Source: Minisyncoccia bacterium | Lineage (GTDB): Bacteria; Patescibacteriota; Minisyncoccia; Phycocordibacterales; Phycocordibacteraceae | DNA length: 64,000 bases | Direction of reading: 5' to 3' | Assembly (NCBI GenBank): GCA_038228545.1 | Contig: JBBRPE010000001.1 | Location: forward strand, 110,924 to 174,923 | Shown here: positions 9,990 through 55,393 of the stretch, piece after piece | Layout of the letters: the number at the start of each line of letters is the position of its first letter | Numbering within the stretch: position 1 is the first letter of the stretch | Made by a program: the position numbers and the translations under genes | Notes under the pieces: generated by a model | Seen by the model: the letters and a program-made list of their open reading frames with translations, nothing else | Database searches by the model: none | Told to the model about the DNA's origin: nothing

Positions 9990-10335
9990 ACCATATGGCC
10001 TTATATATGGCTAGAGCACCCCTTTTCCTTGTTATACGGCCCAGATAGTGCAAGGATTACTAGGTCGCCTTTGTGTGCTGAGCGGGACCTCAGCCGGGCG
10101 ATAATCCGAACGGTCTCTACGACCTTGTACCAATCCGGAATTTTTGGGAAATACCGGATGCACATCCAACAGAATTCCATGAACGTTTCTGCTGCTCGCC
10201 GCAAGGGGAGCAAACGAAAACGGGCCTGGCCGTACCGTCGAGATGGGTAGCTTAGCTCTATGAGCTGCCTCACAACCCGCGCCACCCAGGCGCACACACA
10301 GTCCTAATCTCGGAACATCTGTTCTTGACCCTGGA
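9990..10335 (+). ncRNA. Candidate non-coding RNA of unidentified family, ending in a strong terminator
   Basis: ~390 nt without convincing ORF between divergent rpmF start and rnhB stop; plus-strand intrinsic terminator at 10336-10370; internal hairpins such as ATCCGG..CCGGAT. Confidence 0.3.
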
Positions 10336-16822: not shown

Positions 16823-19800
16823 TTAACCCTCGACTACCTGGAGTGCACGAGTCACCGCCATCTTCACTCCGGTAACGCCAGCTGAGTAGCTAGAGTCAAC
16901 TGCAGTTGAGAGCGAGGATACGAGGCGCTCAAGGAAGCTTGGTGCGCAGCCGGCAGTTGCCTGTGCAATTTCCGGATGTACAGCCGTTCCGTCAGTGTGT
17001 GCACGGAATGCATCATCGAGTGCAACAACTACATGGGTGAGGAACGCCTGTGCGTCGCCGCCTGTCTTGTTGATATCGCGAATGATTGCAAATACCGTTT
17101 CCTTTTCACCGGCGACAAGCGCCTTAATGAAGGAAGGTACGTCCTGAGAAATTACCTTCGCGACTGGTACTTCTACAGTATGAGCCACCGGAGCGGTCAT
17201 GACGGTTATCTGTTCTACCACATTAGCGATAGGAGTTGCATGTTGCGTCGGTGCGACGTAGCTGTGAGTCTCCGTCTCACGAGAGAGTCCCTTCACGATG
17301 TCGTCTACCGTAAGAGTGCCGTTGTCAGCGAGGGCCTTGAAACCTTCGTACGACGAGTAGGTACGAGATGCTACCGGACGAACTGGAGCAGCTACTGAGT
17401 GCATAGCGGGTACGTATGCGACCTGTGTGTGAGCAACTGGTGCGTGCGCTATAGGCGCATAGACCGGCTCGTTTACCGCGTAGCTCATTTCGCCACCGAA
17501 GATTCCCATGCGACGGAGTGCGAACGGAAGTGCGTTACCAAGAACGAGGTACGCAATCGCAAGGCTCCAGAGCACGAGCATGAGCCAGTAGAGCGCCGTG
17601 CCAACAGGACCCAGGTCGAGACCGGTGTACGGAAGGTCAGCGAGGTACACGTACGAGACTGGGTTTCCTGTTACCGGAAGCGAGTCGAGTACGATGTGCG
17701 GCTGAGTAGTATCGACACGGAGTGTTGCAGAACACGTGATGACGTTACCGTTCGTTCCATAGAACGTACCTACGTAGGTGTAGACTCCCTGGCCGTTTGG
17801 AGAGACAGAGCGAGAGCCGCTCGCGTTCACGTCCCCGATACCCTGGTCAAGATGAACGTTATTCGTGTTCGTACTGTTCCAGTAGATGCGTGCGCTGTCA
17901 CCACTGCTGATGTTCGACGGCGATACGCTGAGGGTACACGACGGTCCTGGATTGTACGTATTCGTCGAGACGGTTGTTGCACACGTTACTGTGCCACCTG
18001 CGCCGGTAGCTGTACCAGTGTAGGTACGAGAACCTCCCGGAGTAACGGTGACTGCACCGCCCGTAACGGGACTCATAGAACCGACACCCTGGTCAATGAC
18101 GAATGACGTTGCGTTTGTGGTATTCCACGTAAGCGTCGTCTGGCCATTGCTGTTGATGCTTCCCGGGTTAGCAGAGAGCGTACAGGTCGGGCTTGGCGTC
18201 ACGACAACAACCGTTGCAGGACACGTAATCGTACCGCCTGCACCGGACGCTGTAAGAGCGTAGTTAGTGGTATGCGTCGGCGTTATGTTGCCACTGCCTG
18301 AGGTTGCTACGTTCGAAGAATTCGTTCCGTCCGCAAGCGTTACAGTCGTAGCGTTCGCAGTCGTCCAAATGAGGGTAGAAGAACCACCATAGTTCACGCT
18401 TGCTGGGCTAGCCGAGAGCGTACAGGTAGGAGCAGGTGGTGGCTGCGTTACCGTAACGGTAATCGGAGCAGGACATACGACCGTTCCACCAGGGCCAGTA
18501 GCCGTGAGTGTATAGGTCGTGGTCTGAGTAGGAGCTACGTTGCGGGAAGCCGCCGTTGCTACCGCTCCGATGCCCTGATTAATCGATACGCTCGTAGCGT
18601 TGTTGGTCGTCCACGAAAGCGTGGATGCACCTCCCTGCTGAATAACCTGTGGCGTTGCCGTAAGAGTACAGGTTGGAGCCTCTGGTGTTACAACGACGAT
18701 AGTCGTTGAACAATTTACCGAGGTGCTATTCGCACCCGTAGCCGTGAGGGTGTACGTCGTGGTTACGCTTGGCGCAACTGCAACTGAACCGTTTACAGAG
18801 ACAGTACCAACGCTTGAGATGCTTACTGCAGATGCGTTGCTCGTCGTCCAGGAAAGCGTTGCCGCTGAGCCCTGGGTGATTGAGGTCGGAACTGCAGAGA
18901 GCGTACAGCTTGGGTTCGATGGTGGAACCACATAGATGATGGTCTGACAGGTAGCAGTGCCGCCTGCACCCGAAACTGTAAGCGTGTAGGTTGAGCTCGC
19001 ACCAGGGGAGACAACTGTTGACCCGCCTGATACTGGTGAGATTGAACCGACACCCGAGAGTGAACCCGAAGTAGCGTTCACGCTCGTCCACGTAATGGTC
19101 GAACTACCTCCCTGCTGGATTGAGTTTGGCGAAGCGGTGAGCGTACAGGAAGGAGTTGGAGGAACGATGGTTACGACTACTGTTGTAGAACAGTGCGCAA
19201 CGCCACCAGGACCAACTGCCGTACCGGTGTAGGTCGTGGTCTGACTTGGCCACACACCGATGGAACCGCCCTGTACTGACTGAACATTTCCGATACCCTG
19301 GTCAACCGAGAAACTCGTTGCGCCAGACGTTGTCCATGAAAGATTCGATGAACCTCCCTGCTGGATGTTGTTTGGAGATGCGTTAAGCGTACAAATCGGA
19401 GGATTTGGCTGAACAACGGTTACCGTTGCCTGACAATTCACCGTACCGTTTGCACCAGTTGCCGTAAGTCCGTAGGTTGTCGTTTGTGATGGAGATACCA
19501 GTACCGAGCCGCCGAGCGATACGCTTCCGAGAGTCGAAATAGTAACGCTGTTTGCGTTCGTGGTTGACCATGAAAGTGTTGCGCTGTTTCCAGCAAGTAC
19601 GGACGTCGGACTAGCCGAGAGCGTACAGGTTGGTGGCTGTGGTGGCTGATTCACCGTAATGGTGGTCTGACAATTAACGCTACCGCCATTACCAGTTGCA
19701 GTAAGGGTGTAGGTTGTCGTGCCCCACGGGGTCACGTTCATTGAGCCGCCTGGAGAAACCGCACCGATGCCCTGATTAATCGATACGCTCGTTGCGTTAG

Positions 19801-21340
19801 AGGTCGTCCAAGAAAGAGTGGACGCACCACCGGTCGTAATCGATGTTGGGTTCGCATTAAGCGTACAGGTTGGTGGCTGTGGTGGCTGATTCACCGTAAC
19901 GCTGGTGTAACAACGGACCGTGCCGCCTGCACCTGTTGCAGTGAGTGTGTAATTCGTCGTCTGTGCAGGTGCCACAGTACGGGAACCGAATGTGCCAACT
20001 GATCCGACACCCTGGTCGATAGTTACTGACGTAGCGTTCGTCGTTCCCCAGTTGAGGGTGGACGCGCCGCCGGTCGTAATAGACGAAGGACTTGCGGAGA
20101 GCGTACAGGTTGGTGGCTGTGGAGCCTGCGTTACGACAACCGTCGTGTTGCAGTTTGCCGTGCCTCCAGGACCCGTAACCGTAAGGGTGTAGGTTGTCGT
20201 TTGTGTTGGGGAAACCTGCACGGAACCGCCAGTCGAGACTGCGCCGAAGCCGGTAAGGCTTGCAGAGGTCGCGTTGTTCGATGTCCAAGAGACTACCGAA
20301 GACTGACCATTCTGAATCGAGGTTGGATTTGCAGAGATGGTACAGCTTGGAGCCTGTGGTGGCTGATTCACGGTAACGGTCGTGTAACAGTGGACAGTTC
20401 CACCATTGCCGCTAGCAGTAAGGTCGTACGTCGTCGTCTGTGTCGGGCTAACGTTGCGTGAGCCGTTCGAAGCAACTGCGCCTACTGTTGGTGAAATCGA
20501 AATGCTTGCTGCATTTGTCGTTCCCCAGTTGAGGGTAGATGCACCACCCGTCGTTATGGAAGCAGGGCTCGCCGTAAGCGTACATGTTGGGGAAGGAATC
20601 TGAGTCACCGTTACGGTTGCGTAACAATGGATAGTACCGCCGTTACCGATAGCCGTAAGGTCGTAAGACGTCGTCTGGGACGGCGACACGTTGCGTGAGC
20701 CGGACGTATTTACCGAACCAATGCTCTGATTAATAGAAACGCTGTTTGCGTTCGTGGTATTCCACGAAAGCGTCGAGCTTCCGCCATTCTGTATGGACGT
20801 CGGGTTTGCTGAGAGCGTACAGGTCGGAGCTGGCGTCGGAATGGTTACCGTAACGGTGGTCGTACAATGTACGGTTGTGCCGTTACTAGTAGCCGTAAGG
20901 TCATAGGTCGTCGTCTGTGACGGATTTACCGTACGTGAACCTGAGGTTCCAACTCCACCGATGCCCTGATCGATACTAACGGTATCAGCATTCTGCGTGG
21001 ACCATGAAAGATTTGAAGAATAGCCCTGAGTTATCGTCGACGGATTTGCGTCGAAGTTACAGGTAGGAGGAGGCAGGGGAGCCGGTGCTGGAGTCACGGG
21101 TGCCGGAGCTGGCGCCGGTGCTGGAGCAGGAGGTGGTGGTGGGGGTGGTGGGGGTGGTGGGGCCGGAGCAGGGGGCGGAGTACAGCACGGTGGAAGAACC
21201 TGCGCCATAACCTGCGTAGGTGTTACGAGTCCGGTTGCAAAAGCAATACCGACGCCTGCTGAGAAAACGGTAAGTACGGTAACGACACCGATAAGAATCG
21301 GGCGCTGCTTTGCGTAGGACATTGAAGTTTCGATGCTCAT
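16823..21340 (-). CDS. Giant cell-surface protein (1505 aa): N-terminal TM/signal anchor, Pro-rich linker, ~17 tandem ~80-aa Cys-bounded Ig-like repeats, LPVTG/LPYTG sorting-signal-like segment with TM helix and RR, then ~255-aa C-terminal domain
   Basis: Repeats of form CTLSASPxSIxxGGSSTLxWxTTNATSVxIDQGIGxVxxSGSRxVSPxQTTTYTLTAxGxGGTVxC; 240-nt periodicity at DNA level; LPVTGNPVSYVYLADLPYTGLDLGPVGTALYWLMLVLWSLAIAYLVLGNALPFALRR. Confidence 0.8.
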   Translation of the reverse strand: MSIETSMSYAKQRPILIGVVTVLTVFSAGVGIAFATGLVTPTQVMAQVLPPCCTPPPAPAPPPPPPPPPPPAPAPAPAPAPVTPAPAPLPPPTCNFDANPSTITQGYSSNLSWSTQNADTVSIDQGIGGVGTSGSRTVNPSQTTTYDLTATSNGTTVHCTTTVTVTIPTPAPTCTLSANPTSIQNGGSSTLSWNTTNANSVSINQSIGSVNTSGSRNVSPSQTTSYDLTAIGNGGTIHCYATVTVTQIPSPTCTLTASPASITTGGASTLNWGTTNAASISISPTVGAVASNGSRNVSPTQTTTYDLTASGNGGTVHCYTTVTVNQPPQAPSCTISANPTSIQNGQSSVVSWTSNNATSASLTGFGAVSTGGSVQVSPTQTTTYTLTVTGPGGTANCNTTVVVTQAPQPPTCTLSASPSSITTGGASTLNWGTTNATSVTIDQGVGSVGTFGSRTVAPAQTTNYTLTATGAGGTVRCYTSVTVNQPPQPPTCTLNANPTSITTGGASTLSWTTSNATSVSINQGIGAVSPGGSMNVTPWGTTTYTLTATGNGGSVNCQTTITVNQPPQPPTCTLSASPTSVLAGNSATLSWSTTNANSVTISTLGSVSLGGSVLVSPSQTTTYGLTATGANGTVNCQATVTVVQPNPPICTLNASPNNIQQGGSSNLSWTTSGATSFSVDQGIGNVQSVQGGSIGVWPSQTTTYTGTAVGPGGVAHCSTTVVVTIVPPTPSCTLTASPNSIQQGGSSTITWTSVNATSGSLSGVGSISPVSGGSTVVSPGASSTYTLTVSGAGGTATCQTIIYVVPPSNPSCTLSAVPTSITQGSAATLSWTTSNASAVSISSVGTVSVNGSVAVAPSVTTTYTLTATGANSTSVNCSTTIVVVTPEAPTCTLTATPQVIQQGGASTLSWTTNNATSVSINQGIGAVATAASRNVAPTQTTTYTLTATGPGGTVVCPAPITVTVTQPPPAPTCTLSASPASVNYGGSSTLIWTTANATTVTLADGTNSSNVATSGSGNITPTHTTNYALTASGAGGTITCPATVVVVTPSPTCTLSANPGSINSNGQTTLTWNTTNATSFVIDQGVGSMSPVTGGAVTVTPGGSRTYTGTATGAGGTVTCATTVSTNTYNPGPSCTLSVSPSNISSGDSARIYWNSTNTNNVHLDQGIGDVNASGSRSVSPNGQGVYTYVGTFYGTNGNVITCSATLRVDTTQPHIVLDSLPVTGNPVSYVYLADLPYTGLDLGPVGTALYWLMLVLWSLAIAYLVLGNALPFALRRMGIFGGEMSYAVNEPVYAPIAHAPVAHTQVAYVPAMHSVAAPVRPVASRTYSSYEGFKALADNGTLTVDDIVKGLSRETETHSYVAPTQHATPIANVVEQITVMTAPVAHTVEVPVAKVISQDVPSFIKALVAGEKETVFAIIRDINKTGGDAQAFLTHVVVALDDAFRAHTDGTAVHPEIAQATAGCAPSFLERLVSSLSTAVDSSYSAGVTGVKMAVTRALQVVEG

Positions 21341-21431
21341 GATTGTTTGGTTGAATGCTTGGTAATTTCGATAATAAATTGGTTCCCTGCCACCGAGGTG
21401 GCGTACAAAAAAAGAGAGAAGAGGGTGGTTG

Positions 21432-21458
21432 GGAGGTCGTCTGGGGACGACCTCCCTT
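21432..21458 (-). terminator. Probable terminator after the GC-rich secreted-protein gene
   Basis: GGGAGGTCGTC-TGGGG-ACGACCTCCC hairpin, CU-rich tract downstream on minus strand. Confidence 0.4.
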
Positions 21459-21469
21459 CCTGAAGCGTT

Positions 21470-22471
21470 CTACTGCGGACAGTCTTCGAAGCGGAACCAC
21501 AAGTTGGTCCGCACGGAGCTGGCCCGAGCTTCTGCCTCGGAATTCCACACGATAGCCACTTCCTTGCGGTCGCGCTGTGCGTGGTATTCCGGAGGTTCGA
21601 CACCCATGCCACACGACGTCGTGCCGTCGTGCTCGGTCTTGCACAGCACGAGCCGGAGGCTCGCATCGTGCGCAAACCGAACCGGAACACGTACCGAGTA
21701 CCAGCCCGGAGTAACCCGGAGACAGCCACGGGAGTGAACCCGCATCTGCAGTGCGCTGGCGACGGCTGCAAAGTCGCAGTCTTCGTCACGCACCTGGTCG
21801 AGTGGCCGGTAGGCCCGTTCGGTGAAGGCGCCGTTTTGAAGCGGACCTTGAACGCCGATCGGGCACGCCGCTTCTTCTTGCGGCGTGATGTCTGTGGCGG
21901 CCATGGCCCCCACGTTCACCACATCGTCGTCGGCCGTTGTCCGAAACACCACGAACGCGCAGGGCGGCGGAGCGACAGGCGAGAGGCCCGGGTTGACGCA
22001 GTCAAGCTTCACGACGATGCGTCCGGTGATGCGGTCCCGAAAGACCTGCACGCCGGCAGCAATCCGCTGTGGCTGACACTGCATGAACACGTCGTCGGCT
22101 TCGCGGCTGTGACCGCGAACGCACGACGAGTAGTATTCGATGGAGTGGTCGACTTCGAAGCGCTCGACATCTTCCCGAAGGAAGCGAAGCATCTGGGCGA
22201 AGTCGCCGAGATGTTCGGATTCAGGATCCCCTTGGCGGAAAGCCGCGAGGAACTGAATCGGGTTAGCCACGCATCCGCGGAGCGGACGATGACCGGTCGA
22301 GTCGAGTCGAAGTGACTCCGTCATCCTGGTGGTGAGCTCCCCAATCGAGGGAAGTCCACCCGGACAGAAGGCGTGGTACGGATGTGTCGTTGCCTCTGCC
22401 GTTCCCGGCGCTCCCACCAAAGGCGGCAGCGCAAGAACGACTGAGGCGAGTAGCGCGGTGATGCGCTTCAT
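21470..22471 (-). CDS. Hypothetical secreted Cys-rich protein (333 aa) in a GC-rich island
   Basis: Signal peptide MKRITALLASVVLALPPLVGAPGTAEA after AGGGAG SD; ~10 Cys; local GC visibly higher (~60%+) than flanks; ORF track N-terminal extension (to 22588) disregarded. Confidence 0.55.
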   Translation of the reverse strand: MKRITALLASVVLALPPLVGAPGTAEATTHPYHAFCPGGLPSIGELTTRMTESLRLDSTGHRPLRGCVANPIQFLAAFRQGDPESEHLGDFAQMLRFLREDVERFEVDHSIEYYSSCVRGHSREADDVFMQCQPQRIAAGVQVFRDRITGRIVVKLDCVNPGLSPVAPPPCAFVVFRTTADDDVVNVGAMAATDITPQEEAACPIGVQGPLQNGAFTERAYRPLDQVRDEDCDFAAVASALQMRVHSRGCLRVTPGWYSVRVPVRFAHDASLRLVLCKTEHDGTTSCGMGVEPPEYHAQRDRKEVAIVWNSEAEARASSVRTNLWFRFEDCPQ

Positions 22472-22607
22472 TTTCTCAATCTCCCTTATAGCGCCGCCCC
22501 GGAATGGGACGGCATTGGTTGAACGAACGTAATTCCCCTCTTTGCTGTTGCAAAGTGGTATCTGTGCATGAGACGAGCTCATGAACAAATACCACTCAAC
22601 ACTCTTT

Positions 22608-23270
22608 TTACTGAATACTCACCAAGTGAGCAATAACAACGAAACGGTCTGACTTGGTAGCGAACGAATCGCAGGTGACAAGCGTAAGCTTGCTTCCCTC
22701 TACCGTAAGCGGCACACCGTCGTTCTGTGTATTCGCCTGTGCAACCGTCTCGATTTCGTAGACGTACGTCTTCCCTGCTCCTGTCACCAGAATCTGGTCA
22801 CCATGCGCAAGAGTCTGAATACCGTCGAATGCTTTGTAGGCCTGATTGTGGACGACGGGTAGGTAACTCGAGTGTCCGAAGATAACGACGTTCTTGCCGT
22901 TCTCACCAAGCGAGCCTGACGTTGGATAGCGCACAGCTCCATAGAGAAGATCGTTATCCAACACCTGTGCATTGGTACTCGTCGGATTAGCGACCGTTAC
23001 CGAAAGATTAATCTTTGGAATCGAAATCTTTTCCGGAAGCACTGCGGCTCCAGCAACTTCTGATTGCTGCTGTTGCTCGGTTAGCACCGGCGCCTGTGTG
23101 CCAGTCTTTGATGTGTCAGGGAGCAAGTCGAGTCCGGAAAGCGCAAGTACCGTGGTACCGAATATCACAAAGGCGAACGCAAGGAAGCTCCACTTCTTTG
23201 CGATAATGAGTGATATTCCGCCTTTCGGCTTGGCTGTGGTTGGGTTTGTGGACATATCGGTCTTATACAT
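22608..23270 (-). CDS. srt: Sortase family transpeptidase
   Basis: N-terminal TM anchor, catalytic His context VVIFGHSSY, TLxTC signature LTLVTC, conserved Arg near C-terminus. Confidence 0.8.
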   Translation of the reverse strand: MYKTDMSTNPTTAKPKGGISLIIAKKWSFLAFAFVIFGTTVLALSGLDLLPDTSKTGTQAPVLTEQQQQSEVAGAAVLPEKISIPKINLSVTVANPTSTNAQVLDNDLLYGAVRYPTSGSLGENGKNVVIFGHSSYLPVVHNQAYKAFDGIQTLAHGDQILVTGAGKTYVYEIETVAQANTQNDGVPLTVEGSKLTLVTCDSFATKSDRFVVIAHLVSIQ

Positions 23271-23359
23271 AAATACACTATAAAACAGGTAATGTCAAGT
23301 CCTCCCCATCCCCTACCTATTTTGACCCTGGGCGCTCGGTTTGACAAAGAATTGCGAGT

Positions 23360-24613
23360 GTGGTAATAAGTACGCATATGGAAACGACCCAGAATCACCC
23401 CCAGGTACAGACGACTAAGCGCGCTGCCGTAGGCGGCCTCGCAGTCGTCGGCTTTGTAGCGCTTATTCTTATTGGCATTGCAACTGCAATTTACGCAGCA
23501 TCCTTCCTTCCGAAGGCGTTCTCGAAGCTCTCTTCGGCAAACGTGTTCCTTTCGGGAATTGCCCAGCCAAACGACAACAATCAGCTCCAGGTGGTACAGC
23601 CAACAAACACCACGCCGGCTCCGACCTCTATTGTGCTTTCACCAGCAACCACGACCAACACTGTTATCACTCCTATCTATACACCTCCAGCACCGACCCC
23701 GACGTACACTGCTCCAGCGCCAAAGCCGACCTATACCGCTCCAGCAACACCGACGTACCATGTTGTCGCAGTTCCTGCTTCAACCAACTACACCGGACTT
23801 CCTGATCTTACGACGTCCATCATGTCGGTTGGGTACCTCCGCAACAACGGAGACACCAATTCCTTCGTCGCGGCTAATACCGTGCCAACGGGGCTTCAGG
23901 GTGCTGTTCGCTTCTCTATAGCTAACCGCGGAACAAACGTCTCTGCTCCATTTATCTTTGAGGCAAACATTCCAAGCGGCAACAGCTCAACGGTCTATCG
24001 TTCCCCATCTGAGCGTGCGCTCAATCCAGGCGATAGCGTTATCTTTACGCTCGGCTTCGACTCTACTCAGAGCGGAAGTCAGAACCTTCGTGTGACTGTT
24101 GATCCAAGCAACTACATTGCTGAATCAAACGAAAGCAACAACACTGGTACCGCTACTATTTACCTCAGTGGCAACTACAACAACTCGAATAACAATTCGA
24201 ACAACAACTCAAGTCAGTACGACAGCAACGGTACCTACTGTACGTACGGAACGTACTACTCAAATAGTCGTTACTACTGCAACTCAAGCTACAACGGTAA
24301 CAACAATTCGAATTCGAACACCAGCTCGTACGACAGCAATGGTCAGTATTGTACCTACGGGACGTACTCCTCAAGCGGTCGTTACTACTGCAACTCAAGC
24401 TACAACAGTAACGGTAACAACAATTCGAATCAGAACGATATCAACGGTCGCAATTGCCTCTACGGTACTTCCTACAGCAACGGTCAGTACTACTGCAACG
24501 CAAATACATACACTAATACTAATACCAACACCGGCAACAGTCAGTACGACAGCAACGGTCAGTATTGTGCCTACGGGACGTACTACTCGAACAATCGCTA
24601 TTACTGCTCCTAA
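23360..24613 (+). CDS. Membrane-anchored surface protein: N-terminal TM, Pro/Thr-rich linker, CARDB-like domain, C-terminal N/S/Y-rich tandem repeats
   Basis: CARDB-like ending ...NLRVTVDPSNYIAESNESNN; 4x repeat YDSNGxYCxYGTYYSNxRYYCNSSYN. Confidence 0.75.
   Translation: MVISTHMETTQNHPQVQTTKRAAVGGLAVVGFVALILIGIATAIYAASFLPKAFSKLSSANVFLSGIAQPNDNNQLQVVQPTNTTPAPTSIVLSPATTTNTVITPIYTPPAPTPTYTAPAPKPTYTAPATPTYHVVAVPASTNYTGLPDLTTSIMSVGYLRNNGDTNSFVAANTVPTGLQGAVRFSIANRGTNVSAPFIFEANIPSGNSSTVYRSPSERALNPGDSVIFTLGFDSTQSGSQNLRVTVDPSNYIAESNESNNTGTATIYLSGNYNNSNNNSNNNSSQYDSNGTYCTYGTYYSNSRYYCNSSYNGNNNSNSNTSSYDSNGQYCTYGTYSSSGRYYCNSSYNSNGNNNSNQNDINGRNCLYGTSYSNGQYYCNANTYTNTNTNTGNSQYDSNGQYCAYGTYYSNNRYYCS
24212..24610 (+). 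repeat. Tandem direct repeats (~108-111 nt, 4 copies) encoding the N/S/Y/C-rich C-terminal repeats
   Basis: agtcagtacgacagcaacggt...cgttactactgcaactcaagctacaac recurring at 24212, 24323, ~24430, 24539. Confidence 0.7.
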
Positions 24614-27075: not shown

Positions 27076-27888
27076 ATGCGTTACCCGCGTTTCCTTCTTG
27101 CAACACTCCTTACCGTGGCCGTTATTGGGGGGTCAATAGTTGCCTACCCAGAAGTAGCGCTTGCAGGTCCTTGCGGCGCCGCCTCTGCTCCTAATCCTCC
27201 TTACTTTATAACCCCCCCTGCCCCCTCAAGTGCGAGTTCTATAAGCATGGTCTCCGTGACCGTTATCCCTGGCCCGTGTAATACCGTGACCTTCACGTTT
27301 GCCCACGCCGCCTGTGGAGTAAATGACGGCACGGGCGGTTCTGACATAAGTCAGTCTTCGACTTCTTACACGGATACCGGAATGCAACCAAATAAATGCT
27401 ACGCATACACCCTTCAAGACATTAACGGCGGCGGGTATACGAGTACGCTCTCGACAGCATCTACAACGTATACTTTCGCGAACACTCCAGGCACTCCTAC
27501 CCTCGGCACGCCAACGGCAACCACGCTCACGCTCACGAACGCCGAGAACAGCAATCCGAGCGCAAGTCCCACCACCAACTTCGCCGTGCAGATAACAGTG
27601 ACGGCAGGAAGCGACGCCACCTGGAATAACAAGTGGGTAGATGGTTCCGGCAATCCATCAGCGTCTGCGGTGTGGCTTTCGGACGCGCAACTCGATAACC
27701 TCGTCATCACCGGGCTTCAAAGCAGTGTGACCTACGCGGCTGCTTCGAAGGCACGGAACACCGACACGGTGGAGACTTCTCTCTCCTCAACAGGAAGCAA
27801 CACAACGAGTGCAGGTGGCGGTGGCGCGACACGCATCATTCGAATTCGTGGCGGAACACGATTCCGTGGTGGAGTACGCTTGAAATAA
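27076..27888 (+). CDS. Secreted protein with two fibronectin-III-like beta domains
   Basis: Signal peptide MRYPRFLLATLLTVAVIGGSIVAYPEVALA; FN3-like ...LVITGLQSSVTYAAASKARN. Confidence 0.65.
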   Translation: MRYPRFLLATLLTVAVIGGSIVAYPEVALAGPCGAASAPNPPYFITPPAPSSASSISMVSVTVIPGPCNTVTFTFAHAACGVNDGTGGSDISQSSTSYTDTGMQPNKCYAYTLQDINGGGYTSTLSTASTTYTFANTPGTPTLGTPTATTLTLTNAENSNPSASPTTNFAVQITVTAGSDATWNNKWVDGSGNPSASAVWLSDAQLDNLVITGLQSSVTYAAASKARNTDTVETSLSSTGSNTTSAGGGGATRIIRIRGGTRFRGGVRLK

Positions 27889-33515: not shown

Positions 33516-33591
33516 GCCGCCTTAGCTCAGTTGGTAGAGCAACACTTTTGTAAAGTGAAGGTCCCCAGTTCGAGCCTGGGAGGCGGCTCCA
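33516..33591 (+). tRNA. tRNA-Thr (anticodon UGU), CCA encoded
   Basis: Cloverleaf by hand: acceptor GCCGCCT/AGGCGGC, D-arm GCTCAGTTGGTAGAGC, anticodon loop TTTGTAA, T-arm CCCAGTTCGAGCCTGGG, discriminator T, CCA. Confidence 0.85.
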
Positions 33592-37038: not shown

Positions 37039-40000
37039 CTAGAACTCGTTGAACTTCGGGAGGACATTCACCGTCACCGACCTCGAAACTCCCTCACACG
37101 TAACGGTGTAGGTAGACTGGGTGGTCACATTCAGGATGGTTGTCGTGTTTGTGCTTGCAGCATTCGTAATATCGCACGATGTGTCCGAAAGGGTTGAGTT
37201 GGTGGTGTTAAAGCCTGGACCACCGATATTCGTTCCGGTAAGGGTACACGCCACGCCTGTAGTTACACCGGTTGCACTCCATGAGACGACTACCGAACCG
37301 CCCGAAACGACGCGCGACGGTGTCGCCGTAATAGTTGGGGTGTCTCCAGCTCCACAGGTGTAGGGGTTACCAGTGATAGTAACTGGTGTGCAGGAGGTCG
37401 GGCCTGCATTCTGCGTGCCATTGGTTGCGCTCACCGTCGGTGAGTAGCTACCCCCGCCTGCGTACTTGTTTATAAACGTTGTTGCAGAACTGGTTTGTGA
37501 CGATGGATTACCGCCGACGGCGCTCCACGTGTAGCTGTTTGCTGCTGGCGCGAAGTTGGCTGCGACCACGGTCCACGTCACGTTCTGATTCGGTGCAGCA
37601 CTAGCGGGTGATGGCGTACAGGAAGATATAACTGGAGAAGCCGGAGCCGTCACAGTCACGGCTGTCCAGGCACTGCAGTTGTCGACTTCACTTGACTCCG
37701 TAATAGTACCCGTGCCTGCGGACGAGTTCTTGTCGGCGCAGACGCGCATGTACTTCGTTGTGCCGGCGTCTGCAAGCGGGTAGGTATAGGAAATGGTCGC
37801 CGGTTCCGTATTGCCGTTCGCAAGAGTAGCCGTAACAATCGTGCCTGCATCAATCACGTTGATGGTGCCCGCTGCATTATCGGCACGCTGGAGCAAGTTA
37901 GTGAACGTAGCTCCCGTCGAAGCATTACCAGTGTTTGAAATCGTAGAAGTAAACGCTACCGAAGAATTTGCTTGAGCGGTGCTCGGTGTTACGACGCCCG
38001 CGGTAAGATTCGGCTGGTTGAGCGACACAAGTGTAAGGGTGACGCCACAGAACGGACTTCCCCACGTGTTAGTAGTTATGCCATTTGCGGTTGAGCCAGG
38101 GAAGGTGCTTACATAACCCGCGCTTTGCTTATGGATGACGGCAGACTGTCCAACGGTGATAAGTCCGCGATGTACGGCAGCAGCGCCTATGTCCGAGTCT
38201 TGCGTATATGGACTACTTCCCCACACACTACCGCCATTTGCACCGCCCGTAACGCTGACGTCGCCGGTGTACGCGGAACACTGGTCGGTTACGGTAACAG
38301 CTGTCCAAGCTCCACAATTATTTACCTCATTTGATTCCGCTATGGTGCCGGTGCCTGCAGCAGAGTTTTTATCGGCACAAATACGCATGTACTTGGTCTT
38401 TCCCGCATCATTCGCAGGGAATGTGTAGAAAATAGTAGCTGCCTCCGTACTACCGTTAGCAAGGGTCGCTGTCACAACCGTACCTGCATCAACCACGTTG
38501 ACGGTGCCCGCTGCATCGTCCGCTTTTTGGAGCAGGTTTGTGAAGGTTGCGCCGGTAGATATAGTACCGGTGTTCGATATGGTCGAAGAGAAGCTTGTGG
38601 CGTTTCCTTGCACAGCTGTCGTCGGAGATACTGCTCCGGCTGAAAGGTCGGACGCAGCGCCCGCGATACTTACACTGTTACTGCAAGCAAAGCTTGTACT
38701 CTGGCTACCAGACGTAACCAATACCGATGCGGTCTTGCTTCCCGGTGAAGCATAGGAAGGAGATATCGATATGCTTGACCCCGAGATTCCGTCCGTACCA
38801 CTCCAAGAATACGTGTACGCGCCGGTTCCACCTGATGGAACTGCGGTCCAAGTAACAGCTGCACCAGTGATAGCAGATGTCGGTGACACCGAACACGTTG
38901 CGGAAAGTGTTGGGTATACCGTGACCGCAGTCCAAACGCTACAGTTATCCGCCTCATTCGATTCAGTAATGACGCCTGTACCGACGGCTGATTGCTTATC
39001 TGCACAGGCACGCAAGTACCAGGTGCCAGCCGTAAGTGAGACGGTTGGTGTGAATGTTGCGGTGTTCGATGCTGGCGAAGCGCCAAGTGTTGGATTTGCA
39101 TAGGTGGCGACGTCCGTTGCGCCGGTTCCACCTGAGTCAGTAGCGCGCTGAAGCAGGTCGGTAAATCCAGCGCCTGAGCTAAGACTGCCTGTATTGCTTA
39201 TGGTCGCGGTATACGTCTGTGCGATACCATTCACTGCCGTTGCAGGAGTTGGTCCACTCGCTGTGAGGTTTGGTTGTGCTGCTGCAGTTACGGTGACCGT
39301 CTGGTATGCGCTGCAGTTATTGCCCTCGTTTGATTCGTTTACGGAACCTACAAAGGAAGAATTATTGTCGGCGCATGCACGTACCTGGAAGGTGCCGGTA
39401 GACCCGAAGGTAACGCTCGCACTCGCCGTGCCTGAAGTACCGGAAGTAAGATTTCCAATCGTGTTGGCTGCGTAGATGGAGCCACCCGAGACCTGAATAA
39501 TGTTATTGAAATTACCACCTGATGGATTGGTTGGTCCGAGTCCGCTATTGGTTACTGTAGAATTTATAGTCACTGCGACATTCACAGTAGCGGACGTCGG
39601 CGAGACGAGACCGGCGGCCAAGTCCGGCAAGTTGACCGTAACGACAGAGGTGCCCGTTGCTGTTCCTGTACCGGTACAGGTAAGTGTGTACGTAGTACTC
39701 GTTGATGGTGTGACGACGACCGTATGGGAGCTTCCGTCCGCAGTTATTGCTCCAACACCATTATTGATAGAGCCTGACGAAGAGTTTGCACAGGTATAGG
39801 TAAGTGTCTGACTACTGCCCACGTTTATGGTCGCTGCAGCTGGTGTAAATGTTGCTACCGGAGCTGCAGGAGCTGCAATAGCAACTGAAGTCCATGGTCC
39901 GCAGTTATTTGCCTCGTTCGATTCAGCGACAGCATTAGAGGTGTCCGCGCAGAGACGCACTTGATACGTTCCTGCCGCACCGAATGAGTAGGTGCTTCCG

Positions 40001-42003
40001 GCGGTCACGCCACTCGAACCGCTCGCGGCTATAGCGATGGCCGGAGATGTACCCACAGTTGTGACTCCTTGTATCTCGAAGTATGACGTGAAGGCCGGGA
40101 ACGCGACCGCATTTCCGATGTTTTGAACGGTGCCCGTGAACGTGAGCGGTGTGCCAGCAGTTCCTGAAACCGGCGCAACATTTGCCGTCACTGTAAGATC
40201 CGGCTGTAGGCCGGTTATTGATACCGTGGTGCTACATGCCAGTGCAGACGTGGTTTGCACGCCATCTGAAATAGTAACCGTACCGGTCTTTGAGCCCGCT
40301 GATGGATAGGTTACCGGTGCACTCGGTCCAGTTGCGCCAGCAAGCGGAGCAGTCCCTCCCCAAGAGTAGGTATAGCCACTTCCCGTTCCGCCCGAACCAC
40401 TCGCGGTCCAGGTTATGGTCGTTGCTGTTGTACCAGATGACGGCGATGCGGAGCAGGAGCCGGTCAGTACTGGGTAGGCAGTAATGTTGGAGAACGCCTG
40501 AGTTGAACCCGTACCAGTACATGTAAGTGTGTACGTGGTAACACCGCTTGATCCAGGAGTGACACTCATGGTGTGTGCCGACCCGTCTGCAGTTATTGCC
40601 GTTCCGTTAATAGTTCCGCTCGATGAATTAGTACAGGTGTACGTCAGGGTCTGGCTTGCGCCAAGAATTATAGTCGCCGAAGTCGGCGTTAATGTCGCCA
40701 CAGGAGCTGGTGGAGTTGTAATAGTAACGGTTTTCGAAGTCCAACCTGATAACCCGCCACGACTGTCTTGTGTCTGTGCCTCGAATGTATAGGTACCCGC
40801 AGAGCCCCAGGAGTGATTGCTCGTGCCTTGTGTTCCGGACGAGATATAGCCCGACGCAGGAATAAGCTCGTCTACGGTGCCGTTATTGTCCCAATCGACT
40901 CCGTAACGGATAGTGTCTCCGTCAGGGTCAGTCGCTGTGAATCCGTAGCCGTAGCTGGTGCTTGTAAGACCGGACGCTGGACCGGTGATGGTCGGCGCAT
41001 TGGGGTTATTGTTCGAGGCAATGCCGACCAGTGCGTACGGAATGACCATCGCACCTACGTTTAGCACATAGGGACTTTTTATGATGGTGTTGCTGTTCCA
41101 TGCAGCAGCTCCTCCGCTCACCGTCGGTTGACCGAAACCGGATATGGCACCGCCCGTCATGGGGAGATTGTTTCCATAACAGCCTGCAACATAGCTATAC
41201 CCGTCTTGACTTGAATTGCGATAGTCGTAATACCGGTAATAGAATTTGCCTGTCGTTGCCCCGTAATTAAATGTAGGGGTGAGGGGTCCGGTTCCAGTAA
41301 TAGTGCACTGTTGCTTAAGAGAACCATCTCCTTGCACTACCGGACCTCCACAGCTCATGCCAGTCGTCCCCGTAAGAGAGCGTGCTGGCGGAGCGACACG
41401 GAGCGGTACGTAGACGTCGAAGTTAAGGTTTAGACCAGCGCTCGCGTCTTGATAATTATAATTGACGATAAAGTCGTTCGGATTACAGGTGATTGAAGAC
41501 GGCGCACTTGCCTGCCAGTCACCATAGGGTGAGTCTGCAGAATACCCCGTTCCGAACCACGTTATATTCTGTGGTGTCCATGCAGGGAACACAAAATTAA
41601 CAACGGTTCCGGTAGGAACACTAGCTCCGCTCGATATGATTTGTCCGTTCGAAGCGTTCGTTACAGATACGTCATAGCCGATAGTGATGTCCGGATTTGA
41701 TAGTCCGTCTACCCATCCTTCAGTGCTGCTTTCGCCACCACCTATCCACCGGTTCCAGGCATACCAAAGGTCATCATTCACCGTTATGTGCTGCGTATAG
41801 CTTCCGCTATTAGGAACCGATGCAGCAACAGTTAGAGTTTCAGTACTACTACTTGGAGATGGGTCGGTTTCCGGAGGAATGGCATTATTACCAACATTGT
41901 ACGTACAGGTACCGCTACACCCCGCCCAGGCACCATGTGCAAGCAACAAGACCGCACCGAGTGCGAACGTGAGCAGCACAGCTGTTTTAAGTGTTTTCAT
42001 CAT
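37039..42003 (-). CDS. Giant secreted surface protein (1654 aa) with multiple CARDB-like repeats, a PKD/Ca-binding-like segment and an LCCL domain
   Basis: Signal peptide MMKTLKTAVLLTFALGAVLLLAHGAWA; CARDB repeats ending ESNE(A/V)NNC; TDPDGDTIRYGVDWDNNGTVDE; LCCL-like CSAYTGDV...VWGSSPYTQDSDIGAAAVHRGLITVGQ...; start overlaps upstream stop (ATGA). Confidence 0.8.
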   Translation of the reverse strand: MMKTLKTAVLLTFALGAVLLLAHGAWAGCSGTCTYNVGNNAIPPETDPSPSSSTETLTVAASVPNSGSYTQHITVNDDLWYAWNRWIGGGESSTEGWVDGLSNPDITIGYDVSVTNASNGQIISSGASVPTGTVVNFVFPAWTPQNITWFGTGYSADSPYGDWQASAPSSITCNPNDFIVNYNYQDASAGLNLNFDVYVPLRVAPPARSLTGTTGMSCGGPVVQGDGSLKQQCTITGTGPLTPTFNYGATTGKFYYRYYDYRNSSQDGYSYVAGCYGNNLPMTGGAISGFGQPTVSGGAAAWNSNTIIKSPYVLNVGAMVIPYALVGIASNNNPNAPTITGPASGLTSTSYGYGFTATDPDGDTIRYGVDWDNNGTVDELIPASGYISSGTQGTSNHSWGSAGTYTFEAQTQDSRGGLSGWTSKTVTITTPPAPVATLTPTSATIILGASQTLTYTCTNSSSGTINGTAITADGSAHTMSVTPGSSGVTTYTLTCTGTGSTQAFSNITAYPVLTGSCSASPSSGTTATTITWTASGSGGTGSGYTYSWGGTAPLAGATGPSAPVTYPSAGSKTGTVTISDGVQTTSALACSTTVSITGLQPDLTVTANVAPVSGTAGTPLTFTGTVQNIGNAVAFPAFTSYFEIQGVTTVGTSPAIAIAASGSSGVTAGSTYSFGAAGTYQVRLCADTSNAVAESNEANNCGPWTSVAIAAPAAPVATFTPAAATINVGSSQTLTYTCANSSSGSINNGVGAITADGSSHTVVVTPSTSTTYTLTCTGTGTATGTSVVTVNLPDLAAGLVSPTSATVNVAVTINSTVTNSGLGPTNPSGGNFNNIIQVSGGSIYAANTIGNLTSGTSGTASASVTFGSTGTFQVRACADNNSSFVGSVNESNEGNNCSAYQTVTVTAAAQPNLTASGPTPATAVNGIAQTYTATISNTGSLSSGAGFTDLLQRATDSGGTGATDVATYANPTLGASPASNTATFTPTVSLTAGTWYLRACADKQSAVGTGVITESNEADNCSVWTAVTVYPTLSATCSVSPTSAITGAAVTWTAVPSGGTGAYTYSWSGTDGISGSSISISPSYASPGSKTASVLVTSGSQSTSFACSNSVSIAGAASDLSAGAVSPTTAVQGNATSFSSTISNTGTISTGATFTNLLQKADDAAGTVNVVDAGTVVTATLANGSTEAATIFYTFPANDAGKTKYMRICADKNSAAGTGTIAESNEVNNCGAWTAVTVTDQCSAYTGDVSVTGGANGGSVWGSSPYTQDSDIGAAAVHRGLITVGQSAVIHKQSAGYVSTFPGSTANGITTNTWGSPFCGVTLTLVSLNQPNLTAGVVTPSTAQANSSVAFTSTISNTGNASTGATFTNLLQRADNAAGTINVIDAGTIVTATLANGNTEPATISYTYPLADAGTTKYMRVCADKNSSAGTGTITESSEVDNCSAWTAVTVTAPASPVISSCTPSPASAAPNQNVTWTVVAANFAPAANSYTWSAVGGNPSSQTSSATTFINKYAGGGSYSPTVSATNGTQNAGPTSCTPVTITGNPYTCGAGDTPTITATPSRVVSGGSVVVSWSATGVTTGVACTLTGTNIGGPGFNTTNSTLSDTSCDITNAASTNTTTILNVTTQSTYTVTCEGVSRSVTVNVLPKFNEF

Positions 42004-53810: not shown

Positions 53811-54329
53811 CTAGGGATTCGCCCAACATCCTACTTCGCTCCAGGTCGTTCCGTCTGAAATACTGGTTCGCCCGCTACTGCCATAGCAAAGATAGCGCGC
53901 ACTACCAGCCTTCGCGCTTTCATAGGGAAGATATGCCAGGATAGTAAATTTGTCCGGACTGTCAGGATAGGTGTTAACAAAAAAGAGGCAGTACGTCCCA
54001 CAGGTTGTGCCACTCGATTGGAGGAGTTGATTACACACAGCAGAGGCTGACCCGGCATAATTACCGCCAAAGGAAATATAGCTACAGTGACTACTCTGTC
54101 CTATCCACCCAGTGTCTCCATTTTTTATTGCGGTATAACTTCCTGTTTCGCTGTATTCACTATTCATAATGAGGCGAAATTGCTGTGCCTCTTCTCGCAC
54201 CGCAGTATCAGCAGCGCGCAATCGTGCCATATGTAAATTCGCAAGTACCACTGAGGAAAGAAGTCCTATGATAGCGATAACAACGAGAAGTTCGATGAGG
54301 GTGAACCCGCGTGGTACTTCTCTTTTCAT
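53811..54329 (-). CDS. Type IV pilin / pseudopilin-like protein (prepilin N-terminal methylation motif)
   Basis: MKREVPRGFTLIELLVVIAIIGLL..., C-terminal Cys pair; start at ATG 54329 (ORF-track extension overlaps rpiB). Confidence 0.8.
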   Translation of the reverse strand: MKREVPRGFTLIELLVVIAIIGLLSSVVLANLHMARLRAADTAVREEAQQFRLIMNSEYSETGSYTAIKNGDTGWIGQSSHCSYISFGGNYAGSASAVCNQLLQSSGTTCGTYCLFFVNTYPDSPDKFTILAYLPYESAKAGSARYLCYGSSGRTSISDGTTWSEVGCWANP

Positions 54330-54357
54330 ATTTTTAGGGCTGTAGAGGGGTTTTAAA

Positions 54358-54840
54358 CTAAAACTTAGAAAGTCTGCGCATGTGTCGCGGTGACGCCGCA
54401 TCAAACGCGGTACTGAGGAAAATACGCACGGCTTCGTCTGCATCATCAGGTGAGACAAACCGAGCACCGATAGAGAGCACGTTCGCATTATTGTGCTTAC
54501 GAGAAAGTCGTATGACATCAAATCCATCTTCGGAATGTCCTCCTTCGACATCAAGAGCGTCGAGTGCCGGCTCTTTACCGTAAAAAACCGCCGCACGAAT
54601 GGCCGGAACTCGGTTCGCGCACATTGCCTCGCCCTGCCCGCTTCCGGCAACGATAATACCGAAGGCATCCTCCGATGCGATTTTGTGAGCAAAGGGCGTT
54701 ACGTAATCCGGATAATCGTCTTCGGGATCAAGCGTAGCTGGGCCAAGGTCTTCCACTTCATAGCCAAGTACTTGTAGATGGTCAAACAATGCAGTTTTAA
54801 GTCTGAAGCCAGCATGGTCGCCCGTAAGATATATTTTCAT
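54358..54840 (-). CDS. rpiB: Ribose-5-phosphate isomerase B (RpiB/LacAB family)
   Basis: MKIYLTGDHAGF...GIIVAGSGQGEAMCANR; start at ATG 54840. Confidence 0.85.
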   Translation of the reverse strand: MKIYLTGDHAGFRLKTALFDHLQVLGYEVEDLGPATLDPEDDYPDYVTPFAHKIASEDAFGIIVAGSGQGEAMCANRVPAIRAAVFYGKEPALDALDVEGGHSEDGFDVIRLSRKHNNANVLSIGARFVSPDDADEAVRIFLSTAFDAASPRHMRRLSKF

Positions 54841-54883
54841 ATTTTGAGTATCAGCCACACCAGATGTAGTTCAGGTGAAGTAA

Positions 54884-55393
54884 TTATGGATTTGAATAAC
54901 AGCCCGGGTCAGTCCATCCAGCACTGTTGCTATCAGTAATGCTATATTTTCCGCCACTTCCGTAACATAGCCAACGCGCGCTACCCGCCAAGGCGCTGGC
55001 ATACGGCAGATATGCCATGATGGTGAACTTATCAGGCGAGTCAGGATTCGTTGCGGCAAACCAGACACAGTTTCCACCACATGTAGCACCAGCAGCTTTC
55101 ACGAGTGCAGTACAAATACTCGCAGCTTGCGTAGCGTAGTTTCCTCCGAAGCCGCTGCAACTCTGGCCGGCAGTGAGCCATGATCCGCCAGCACCCGATT
55201 TAATCACAGCGTACGAGCCCACATCCGAGTACTGCAATTGCATGATATTTCTGAACTGTTCGGCTTCAGAGCGGACGGTAGCGTCTGCCGCCTTCGCACG
55301 CGTAGTGTTCAGGCTTGCAAGGGCAACGGATGCAATAACACCGATAATAGCGATAACGACGAGAAGTTCGATAAGGGTAAACCCGCGTTGCAT
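54884..55393 (-). CDS. Type IV pilin / pseudopilin-like protein, paralog of 53811..54329
   Basis: MQRGFTLIELLVVIAIIGVIASVALA...; shares PDSPDKFTI(M/L)AYLPY..A.AGSAR(W/Y)LCYGSGG with paralog. Confidence 0.85.
   Translation of the reverse strand: MQRGFTLIELLVVIAIIGVIASVALASLNTTRAKAADATVRSEAEQFRNIMQLQYSDVGSYAVIKSGAGGSWLTAGQSCSGFGGNYATQAASICTALVKAAGATCGGNCVWFAATNPDSPDKFTIMAYLPYASALAGSARWLCYGSGGKYSITDSNSAGWTDPGCYSNP

Follow-up and report, generated by a model that had tools for sequence, protein, structure and literature searches.

Gene content and conservation of the locus

We analyzed a group of four genes at positions 16823–24613 of a 64,000-nucleotide stretch of genomic DNA from a Minisyncoccia bacterium (contig JBBRPE010000001.1, positions 110,924–174,923), referred to below as the window. 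An initial annotation had read the locus as a surface-display system composed of a giant LPxTG protein with immunoglobulin (Ig)-like repeats, a Cys-rich secreted protein, a sortase and a divergently oriented CARDB-domain protein, and all four open reading frames (ORFs) were found where it had placed them. The gene of the Cys-rich protein, which lies between the sortase gene and the giant gene, is called the slot gene here. The locus comprises the following features:

16823–21340, minus strand: gene of the giant surface protein, an ORF of 1505 amino acids (aa), the probable dedicated sortase substrate
21407–21456, minus strand: terminator-like element downstream of the Cys-rich gene and ahead of the giant gene (hairpin at 21431–21456, T-rich run at 21407–21420)
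21470–22471, minus strand: gene of the Cys-rich secreted protein, the GC-rich slot gene (333 aa from the ATG at 22471; ORF open to 22588)
22608–23270, minus strand: sortase gene, 220 aa (PF04203)
23271–23359, no strand assigned: intergenic region between the divergent sortase and CARDB genes, an arrangement kept in 52 of 52 loci
23360–24613, plus strand: gene of a membrane-anchored CARDB-domain protein (PF07705)

For comparison we used a profile of the C-terminal module of the giant protein, which recovered 193 species-level genomes. Eighty loci were fetched, and the 52 distinct ones with enough upstream sequence were compared after mechanical ORF calling and scanning of the ORFs with hidden Markov models (HMMs). 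The order CARDB gene (minus strand), sortase gene, slot gene and module-bearing giant gene was found in all 52 comparable loci. The cassette formed by the four genes is embedded in a conserved block, PheST-GyrB-cassette-ThrRS-DnaE, with GyrB upstream and ThrRS/DnaE downstream of the cassette in about 47–50 of 51 loci. Three long contigs display GyrB, CARDB (minus strand), sortase, an unannotated gene of ~400 aa, a large protein, ThrRS and DnaE in this order. The block from PheS/PheT and GyrB through the cassette to ThrRS and DnaE corresponds to positions 10000–32000 of the window and is kept in nearly all of the 51 related loci.

The slot gene is followed by a hairpin (21431–21456) with an 11-bp GC-rich stem, a free energy (dG) of –24.9 kcal/mol and a z score of –3.7, and then by a T-rich run. 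An equivalent hairpin (dG –15 to –35) is present within about 0–32 nucleotides (nt) of the slot-gene stop codon in all 51 other loci, 48 of which have a run of at least four T beside it. Stem sequences are unrelated between the window and the comparison loci (L003–L078; such handles denote individual loci). Since the hairpin is kept in 52 of 52 loci with differing stems, its structure is conserved and its sequence is not. Hairpin and T-run probably act as an intrinsic terminator that separates the sortase and slot genes from the giant gene. Given this position after the slot gene, the sortase and slot genes are likely to form one transcription unit, the giant gene being transcribed separately or by read-through. 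The intergenic region between the sortase and CARDB genes contains one weak sigma-70-like match (minus strand, 23347 to 23319), which is not above shuffle expectation, and an Rfam scan of the window returned only one tRNA, at 33516.

The CARDB protein matched PF07705 at 37.8 bits (cutoff 22.7) over aa 176–263 (nt 23885–24148). It is built from a membrane anchor, a Pro/Thr linker, the CARDB domain and C-terminal repeats; the latter are four 21-aa Y/N/S-rich two-Cys units at aa 287–417 (nt 24218–24610), so that the description as a CARDB protein with N/S/Y/C-rich repeats holds. It is present in 52 of 52 loci and 55–59% identical to the divergent neighbors of the sortase in L003–L005. The 21-aa units go together with the long CARDB versions (350–430 aa) of the window's own clade. 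As the gene encodes only ~260 aa in the majority of distant loci, the repeats look like a clade-specific extension.

Relatives bearing the cassette are labelled Parcubacteria group, Candidatus Paceibacterota, Candidatus Kaiserbacteria or Patescibacteria, and Candidatus Kaiserbacteria belongs to the Parcubacteria group in the NCBI taxonomy. The initial annotation had compared the envelope with that of Saccharibacteria. This framing is doubtful and not supported by our comparison, because most independently named relatives are metagenome-assembled genomes (MAGs) of the Parcubacteria group, Paceibacterota and Kaiserbacteria, not of Saccharibacteria. About two dozen third party annotation (TPA) MAGs labelled "uncultured Candidatus Saccharibacteria" (L007, L011, L012, L015 and others) carry the cassette; these labels look like a taxonomic mapping issue at the submission level.

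The sortase and its probable substrate

The sortase call was confirmed by Pfam, PF04203 being matched at 77.9 bits against a cutoff of 26.6 over profile positions 1–125 of 125. His133 (in GHS), Cys200 (in TLVTC) and Arg209 (in DRF) align with GHS, TLITC and HRL of PDB entry 5k9a. The protein carries an N-terminal membrane anchor, and homolog alignments start at M6 (nt 23255). Among its 1929 relatives those named by source are mostly Parcubacteria, Paceibacterota or Patescibacteria. The sortase could not be assigned to a class: no NCBIfam model of sortase classes A–F (NF033745–NF033748 and related) was matched at cutoff, the best class scores being 45.8 for class C and 39.0 for class E, each against 160, and the model TIGR01076 (sortase_fam) reached 38.1 against a cutoff of 39.35. 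The closest solved structures are pilus-specific class C sortases (5k9a, E 1.7e-7; Ebp sortase, 7.4e-7). Class C sortases possess an N-terminal lid with a DP[WFY] motif that occludes the active site, and inspection of the 220-aa sequence alone revealed no such motif.

The giant protein can be divided into the following parts, all encoded on the minus strand:

21230–21304: N-terminal hydrophobic segment, aa ~13–37, read from the sequence; candidate signal peptide or signal anchor
21062–21193: PPCC motif and polyproline linker, aa 50–93; codon repeats seen by Tandem Repeats Finder (TRF) and repeat search
17732–21061: fourteen tandem ~80-aa two-Cys units, delimited by Cys spacing; presumed beta-sandwich domains
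17666–17680: LPVTG, aa 1221–1225; unrelated residues at this place in homologs
17621–17635: LPYTG, aa 1236–1240; conserved sortase-type motif
17516–17599: transmembrane (TM) helix, aa ~1248–1275, then RR; hydrophobic stretch and AlphaFold helix
16826–17509: cytoplasmic tail, aa 1278–1505, of which the last ~108 aa (nt 16826–17149) form a six-helix bundle

The N-terminal hydrophobic layout is the same in the homologs. A "..PPCC..PPPP" motif occurs in 46 of the 52 homologous giants, some of which have 2–3 copies. Its vicinal cysteines are placed directly after the hydrophobic segment and before the polyproline stretch, and the motif is a possible disulfide or thioester attachment point. Cysteines of the repeat units are spaced by 64–68 residues within and 13–17 residues between units. 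The number of units varies from 1 to 15 among the homologous giants with a median of 3.5, as compared to 14 in the window. Neither Pfam nor NCBIfam gave a match over any part of the giant protein, the I-set domain appearing only below threshold (E 0.011). Of the initial description as an Ig-repeat protein the tandem repeat units were thus recovered, while their Ig identity lacks HMM support; because neither database recognizes the giant, "Ig-like" is a tentative designation.

A search of 1.84 billion cluster representatives with the C-terminal module (aa 1209–1505) gave 682 relatives at E ≤ 1e-3. The module is located at the C-terminus of every full-length protein fetched, with protein lengths of 541–1378 aa. 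In the module alignment (A1) the residues P, Y, T and G are invariant and stand in the context [FY][VL]YLS[QE][ILVM]PYTG[LF][DE]LGP. A census over the loci yielded IPYTG 51 times, VPYTG 12, LPYTG 10, MPYTG 4, and IPQTG and LPVTG once each, so that 77 of 79 homologous modules have [ILVM]PYTG. The upstream LPVTG of the window giant was ruled out as the sorting motif, since it is not conserved in homologs and is probably a chance occurrence. In the window LPYTG is followed by a hydrophobic membrane-spanning segment and then by basic residues (GTALYWLMLVLWSLAIAYLVLGNALPFALRR). It agrees with the LPXTG-like pentapeptide of a canonical sorting signal; such a signal lies at the extreme C-terminus, whereas 265 residues follow the motif in the window giant and 242–317 aa in all 52 homologs. 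The giant can therefore be called an LPxTG protein as far as LPYTG, TM helix and RR are concerned, but it is an atypical one, with [ILVM]PYTG as the conserved form and the motif placed ~265 residues from the C-terminus.

We also modelled the C-terminal module with AlphaFold from a 13-sequence alignment (mean predicted local distance difference test score, pLDDT, 70.6). The PYTG stretch has low pLDDT and appears unstructured, just outside a membrane helix at module positions 37–81 that reaches pLDDT 85–95 over its hydrophobic core. The TM helix is followed by disordered linkers and then by a six-helix bundle with pLDDT ~95. In a Foldseek search of the PDB with this model the top 34 matches were all bacterial clamp-loader subunits, nearly all of them E. 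coli DnaX gamma, with a probability of 1.0 and mostly a root-mean-square deviation of 2–3 Å over ~113 residues at 19–20% identity. As judged from the model, the terminal bundle thus appears to resemble the collar domain fold of the clamp loader. Sequence homology of the tail to DnaX was considered as well and rejected, none having been detected in Pfam or PDB sequence searches. The collar-like cytoplasmic domain is always encoded beside replication genes, which may be coincidence.

An xPxTG+TM module adjoins the sortase gene in 52 of 52 loci and the sortase passed its HMM, in agreement with the initial proposal of a sortase beside its probable substrate, which here is probably a dedicated one. 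Alternatively, PYTG might be a structural juxtamembrane motif of a giant that is stably held by two anchors, with the sortase serving proteins encoded elsewhere. In favor of this, a long folded cytoplasmic tail takes the place of the usual short charged one in all 52 homologs, conservation extends well beyond the pentapeptide, and the sortase fits no class. We nevertheless consider this explanation improbable: sortase and module are strictly adjacent throughout, the xPxTG consensus is found in canonical position directly before TM helix and RR, and neither the 64-kb window nor roughly 1 Mb of sequence from related loci showed another ORF with an xPxTG+TM signal.

A second alternative retains cleavage at PYTG and differs in the acceptor. 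The sortase could polymerize a class C-like fibre, the giant's Thr being joined to a Lys or other amine of a giant, Cys-rich or CARDB subunit and not to peptidoglycan. The class C identity of the nearest solved sortases (5k9a, Ebp) and of the best NCBIfam score points in this direction, as does the clustering of a dedicated sortase with accessory secreted proteins. On the other hand, the class C model stays far below its cutoff (45.8 vs 160), DP[WFY] was not seen in the sequence, the cassette contains a single xPxTG protein and no pilin motif was identified, which makes fibre formation of this kind rather unlikely in our view.

Base composition and exchange of the slot gene

An AAGGGAG Shine-Dalgarno sequence is located 8 nt upstream of the ATG at 22471, and homolog alignments agree with this codon as the probable true start of the slot gene. 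The 333-aa product contains 12 Cys, 30 Arg (9%) and 4 Lys and has a signal-peptide-like N-terminus. It gave no match in Pfam or NCBIfam and nothing significant by Foldseek against the PDB or BFVD. The model, built from nine sequences, has a mean pLDDT of 63.6, with a beta-sandwich in the C-terminal half at pLDDT 80–90.

The initial annotation had pointed to raised GC and Arg-rich codon usage around the Cys-rich secreted protein, and both the sliding GC profile and codon usage bear out the outlier. In the 300-nt profile GC amounts to 0.60–0.67 between about 21400 and 22500 and to 0.46–0.56 around this region. The slot gene has a GC content of 0.618 compared to 0.524 for the 43 ORFs of the window (+3.8 standard deviations, SD). 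Its GC content at third codon positions (GC3) is 0.702 compared to 0.547 (+2.8 SD), the highest of the 43. The excess is not peculiar to this genome: slot-gene GC exceeds locus GC in 52 of 52 species by 6.3 points on average, with slot genes at 0.50–0.66 (mostly 0.55–0.66) in loci of 0.46–0.64 GC. Slot-gene GC3 has a mean of 0.723 (SD 0.07), other genes of the same loci a mean of 0.574 (median z 3.2; 48 of 52 positive), and regression of GC3 over the loci gave mid = 0.53 + 0.34 × background, mid being the slot gene.

From the composition the initial annotation had suggested that the gene is a horizontally acquired insert. Taken strictly, this reading would make it a foreign island recently received from a GC-richer donor. 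The slot gene is indeed the strongest compositional outlier in the window (GC +3.8 SD, top GC3 of 43, Arg-rich, Lys-poor), and a word-indexed search of 5.8 billion proteins with its product gave only three matching proteins and only two detectable relatives. Both relatives are encoded on short contigs and flanked by the same sortase and the same giant-protein N-terminus, and the family as a whole was found only inside the cassette. Of the usual criteria for genomic islands, atypical composition is present, whereas absence from the syntenic site in relatives is not, a homolog occupying the slot in 52 of 52 species. The window copy is most similar to the copies found in its nearest relatives (L011, 0.39; L003, 0.36), and we found no integrase or transposase ORFs, no adjacent tRNA and no bracketing direct repeats at the slot gene of the window. 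All species show the GC excess irrespective of the GC content of their genomes, which speaks against a foreign origin, and we regard recent import from outside as very improbable. What stands of the proposed horizontal transfer is exchange of the slot gene among relatives.

The slot genes of all 52 loci join a single homology network, and most products have about 10 Cys. In the alignment of the family the Cys scaffold is kept and little else. Mean pairwise identity is 0.21 for the slot product compared to 0.51 for the sortase, 0.43 for the CARDB protein and 0.50 for the C-terminal module, identity matrices near 20% being noisy. Slot-gene distances correlate poorly with those of the other three genes (Spearman 0.10–0.17), which agree among each other at 0.51–0.64. 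Likewise, the nearest neighbor of a slot gene has a median rank of 7 in sortase similarity, compared to rank 1 for the C-terminal module as a control. In most of seven species pairs the dN/dS ratio (nonsynonymous to synonymous substitution rates, dN and dS) of the slot gene is about 2–3 times that of its neighbors (0.12–0.32), and it never exceeds 1.

Individual loci illustrate the discordance. The window, L003, L011, L004, L005 and L030 form a coherent clade for sortase, CARDB protein and tail. The slot gene of L004, however, is closest to those of L020, L016, L044 and L062 outside the clade (0.39–0.44), its identity to clade members being only 0.16–0.20, and that of L005 is a singleton. Between L016 and L020, dS is 0.157 for the slot gene compared to 0.69, 0.85 and 0.72 for sortase, CARDB protein and tail, and nucleotide identity is 95–100% exactly across the slot gene (L016:7583–8480) and 75–89% on both sides. 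This tract is a recombination or transfer event between two species-level genomes. From the discordant phylogeny and the L016/L020 tract it follows that the slot undergoes lateral exchange of alleles within the lineage. The slot gene is a permanent, hypervariable member of the cassette that is exchanged laterally within the lineage, not one imported into this genome.

We then considered what could raise GC3 in a single gene. Amino-acid composition alone was rejected as the cause, since GC3 itself is raised and 17 of 18 amino-acid families have a higher fraction of GC-ending codons in slot genes than in a set of 371 housekeeping genes. Translational selection was rejected because the genes of ribosomal proteins S2, L25 and L32, EF-Ts, GAPDH and aldolase have GC3 values of 0.51–0.60. 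Transfer from relatives as the source of GC was likewise rejected: it cannot lift the mean above that of the donor-genome pool. An antisense ORF of 244 aa (21581–22315, plus strand) lies inside the slot gene, and in the 52 homologs the open part of the codon-aligned antisense frame has a median extent of 76% of the gene. A real antisense gene was rejected, since TCA and CTA, which create antisense stops, are depleted (0.38×) no more than the other A-ending four-fold codons CCA (0.36×), ACA (0.40×) and GTA (0.24×); the open antisense frame is thus a by-product of the depletion of A/T at third positions.

The excess is most likely due to recombination-associated GC-biased gene conversion at an exchange hot spot and not to donor composition. 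A competing explanation is that selection on the slot gene maintains high GC3, be it for mRNA structure or stability, for the translation kinetics of a disulfide-rich protein or for an antisense function. Such selection would be consistent with an excess in 48 of 52 species and a near-constant target of 0.72 (SD 0.07), with the strong Shine-Dalgarno sequence and own terminator of the gene and with the widely open antisense frame. We judge it unlikely, if worth serious consideration, as highly expressed genes of the window are not GC3-rich and TCA/CTA depletion is no stronger than that of other A-ending codons, and because recombination confined to the slot gene is directly documented for L016/L020.

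Proposed mechanism and relation to known systems

On the basis of these results a working mechanism can be proposed. The sortase, using His133, Cys200 and Arg209, would cleave PYT|G of the giant after Thr; the peptide YLSQIPYTGLDLG is the predicted substrate. It would then transfer the ectodomain with its PPCC-polyproline tip and its 14 two-Cys domains onto the cell wall or a partner, where this part would stand as a long surface stalk. The TM helix and the cytoplasmic remnant of ~230 aa would stay in the membrane. The clamp-loader collar domain mediates oligomerization, so that the remnant with its collar-like fold may bring precursors together or inform the cell interior about assembly. The Cys-rich and CARDB proteins would be extracellular partners of the stalk, and the Cys-rich protein would most likely act with it as an exposed, diversifying specificity or adhesion component.

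Together with this mechanism, we interpret the four-gene region as an ancestral core-genome surface cassette of Parcubacteria/Paceibacteria-type (Kaiserbacteria-like) bacteria of the Candidate Phyla Radiation (CPR), to which we assign a probability of roughly 0.6. Several points weigh against this interpretation. As regards the giant protein, we know of no sortase substrate with a folded extension of 265 aa after the sorting signal, and the flanks of the motif (YLSQ.PYTGLDLGP) are more conserved than those of ordinary sorting signals, which a structural role could explain. Foldseek E-values for the collar-like domain are modest (1.6e-3 to 0.1), and the tail gave no Pfam match at E ≤ 10 for any of the 13 members of the alignment, nor a PDB sequence match that would connect it to the clamp-loader collar. 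As regards the slot gene, Glu, Gln and His codons do not take part in the GC shift from which we infer biased conversion; wholesale allele replacement need not involve heteroduplex repair; and the window's own copy carries no direct sign of recent exchange. The function given to the Cys-rich protein is read only from its location, signal peptide, Cys content and variability.

The arrangement shares much with Gram-positive LPXTG/sortase proteins such as S. aureus SrtA and protein A, including an export signal, a repetitive beta-rich ectodomain, xPxTG, a hydrophobic helix, basic residues and a membrane-anchored Cys/His/Arg sortase. It differs from them in that Tyr is fixed at X within the context YLSQ.PYTGLDLGP, the signal is not C-terminal but followed by 242–317 residues, with a helical bundle at the end of the window tail, the sortase lies outside the class A–F models and the pair belongs to an obligate four-gene cassette. 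With class C pilus clusters (C. diphtheriae SpaA/SrtA, E. faecalis Ebp) it has in common a dedicated sortase beside its substrate and accessory secreted proteins, but the sortase scores far below the class C cutoff, no lid motif is visible and only one xPxTG protein is present.

A further likeness concerns the part left in the membrane. Hall et al., in 2019 in Sci Signal, reportedly described how a two-component system of streptococci monitors "C-pep", the membrane peptide that remains once the sortase has cut, and a membrane-embedded C-terminal remnant of the giant could inform the cytoplasm in a similar manner. The streptococcal remnant has about 30 aa, however, whereas that of the giant has about 265 aa with a folded domain, and the cassette encodes no kinase or regulator. 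The last ~110 residues of the giant appear, in the model, to share their fold with domain III of the clamp-loader subunits DnaX gamma/tau, delta and delta' (PDB 1jr3, 3glf, 8var); unlike these, the giant has neither detectable sequence homology to them nor AAA+ modules, and the domain is fused to the membrane helix of a surface protein.

According to Meheust et al. (2019, PMC6744442), who describe the CPR sortase family fam000526 and CPR-enriched families linked to disulfides and pili, more than half of the CPR genomes have sortases, and extracytoplasmic disulfide machinery is enriched in CPR genomes too. This fits the many Cys-paired domains of the cassette proteins. In our searches that work contained no description of the cassette or its hypervariable GC-rich gene, nor of the PYTG signal and the cytoplasmic tail. 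Our literature search, which was limited in coverage, returned no account of a PYTG sortase signal, the tail domain, the cassette or the GC-rich slot gene either.

That the cassette occupies the same core-genome position in all species sampled from a large lineage is of interest because, to our knowledge, there is almost no experimental knowledge of how Parcubacteria-type CPR bacteria build their surface or recognize partners. The cassette leads to three predictions: a dedicated sortase with a new recognition context, YLSQ[ILVM]PYTG; a sorting signal joined to a large folded cytoplasmic domain, which challenges the textbook tripartite signal and suggests coupling between inside and outside; and a hypervariable, laterally exchanged component as the likely determinant of specificity. 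The GC3 excess, confined to one gene and found across the lineage, moreover offers a naturally occurring case in which biased gene conversion and selection can be cleanly told apart in bacteria, and it illustrates that an outlier in composition need not be foreign DNA. On a more speculative note, the cassette might be a partner-recognition organelle of these presumably episymbiotic bacteria. A hypervariable specificity protein would then be carried on a sortase-anchored stalk, and PYTG cleavage would free a membrane-tethered, oligomerizing collar-fold reporter through which surface assembly or attachment could act on processes inside the cell, conceivably on the replication machinery whose genes lie alongside. 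The slot gene would at the same time exemplify strong GC-biased gene conversion confined to a single bacterial gene. Taken as a whole we hold this extended version to be a long shot.

Apart from the cassette, the window contains several other genes for surface proteins. A second giant secreted protein of 1654 aa (37039–42003, minus strand) has five CARDB domains and an LCCL domain and carries no xPxTG+TM signal. A 1452-aa protein (59555–63913, minus strand) combines Peptidase_S74, the chaperone of endosialidase found in phage tail-fibre-type proteins, with a bacterial surface Ig-like domain. Adjoining its gene, a 723-aa Gly-rich protein with DUF2341 is encoded (57360–59531, minus strand), and the Gly codons of this gene account for a local GC peak and a GC skew of –0.23 at 58001–59000. 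The same protein and a second secreted Thr/Ser/Gly-rich one (27076–27888, plus strand) end in similar C-termini with a Gly-run and an Arg-rich part, ...GGGGATRIIRIRGGTRFRGGVRLK for 27076–27888 and ...GGGSTSRNMRLFEGFRLKLVSGRLILRQQ for 57360–59531, which by their sequence may represent a different, undescribed C-terminal anchoring signal. Finally, two adjacent type IV pilin-like genes are located at 53811–55393 (minus strand), with the N-terminal methylation motif GFTLIELLVVIAIIG and a match to PF07963 for 54884–55393.

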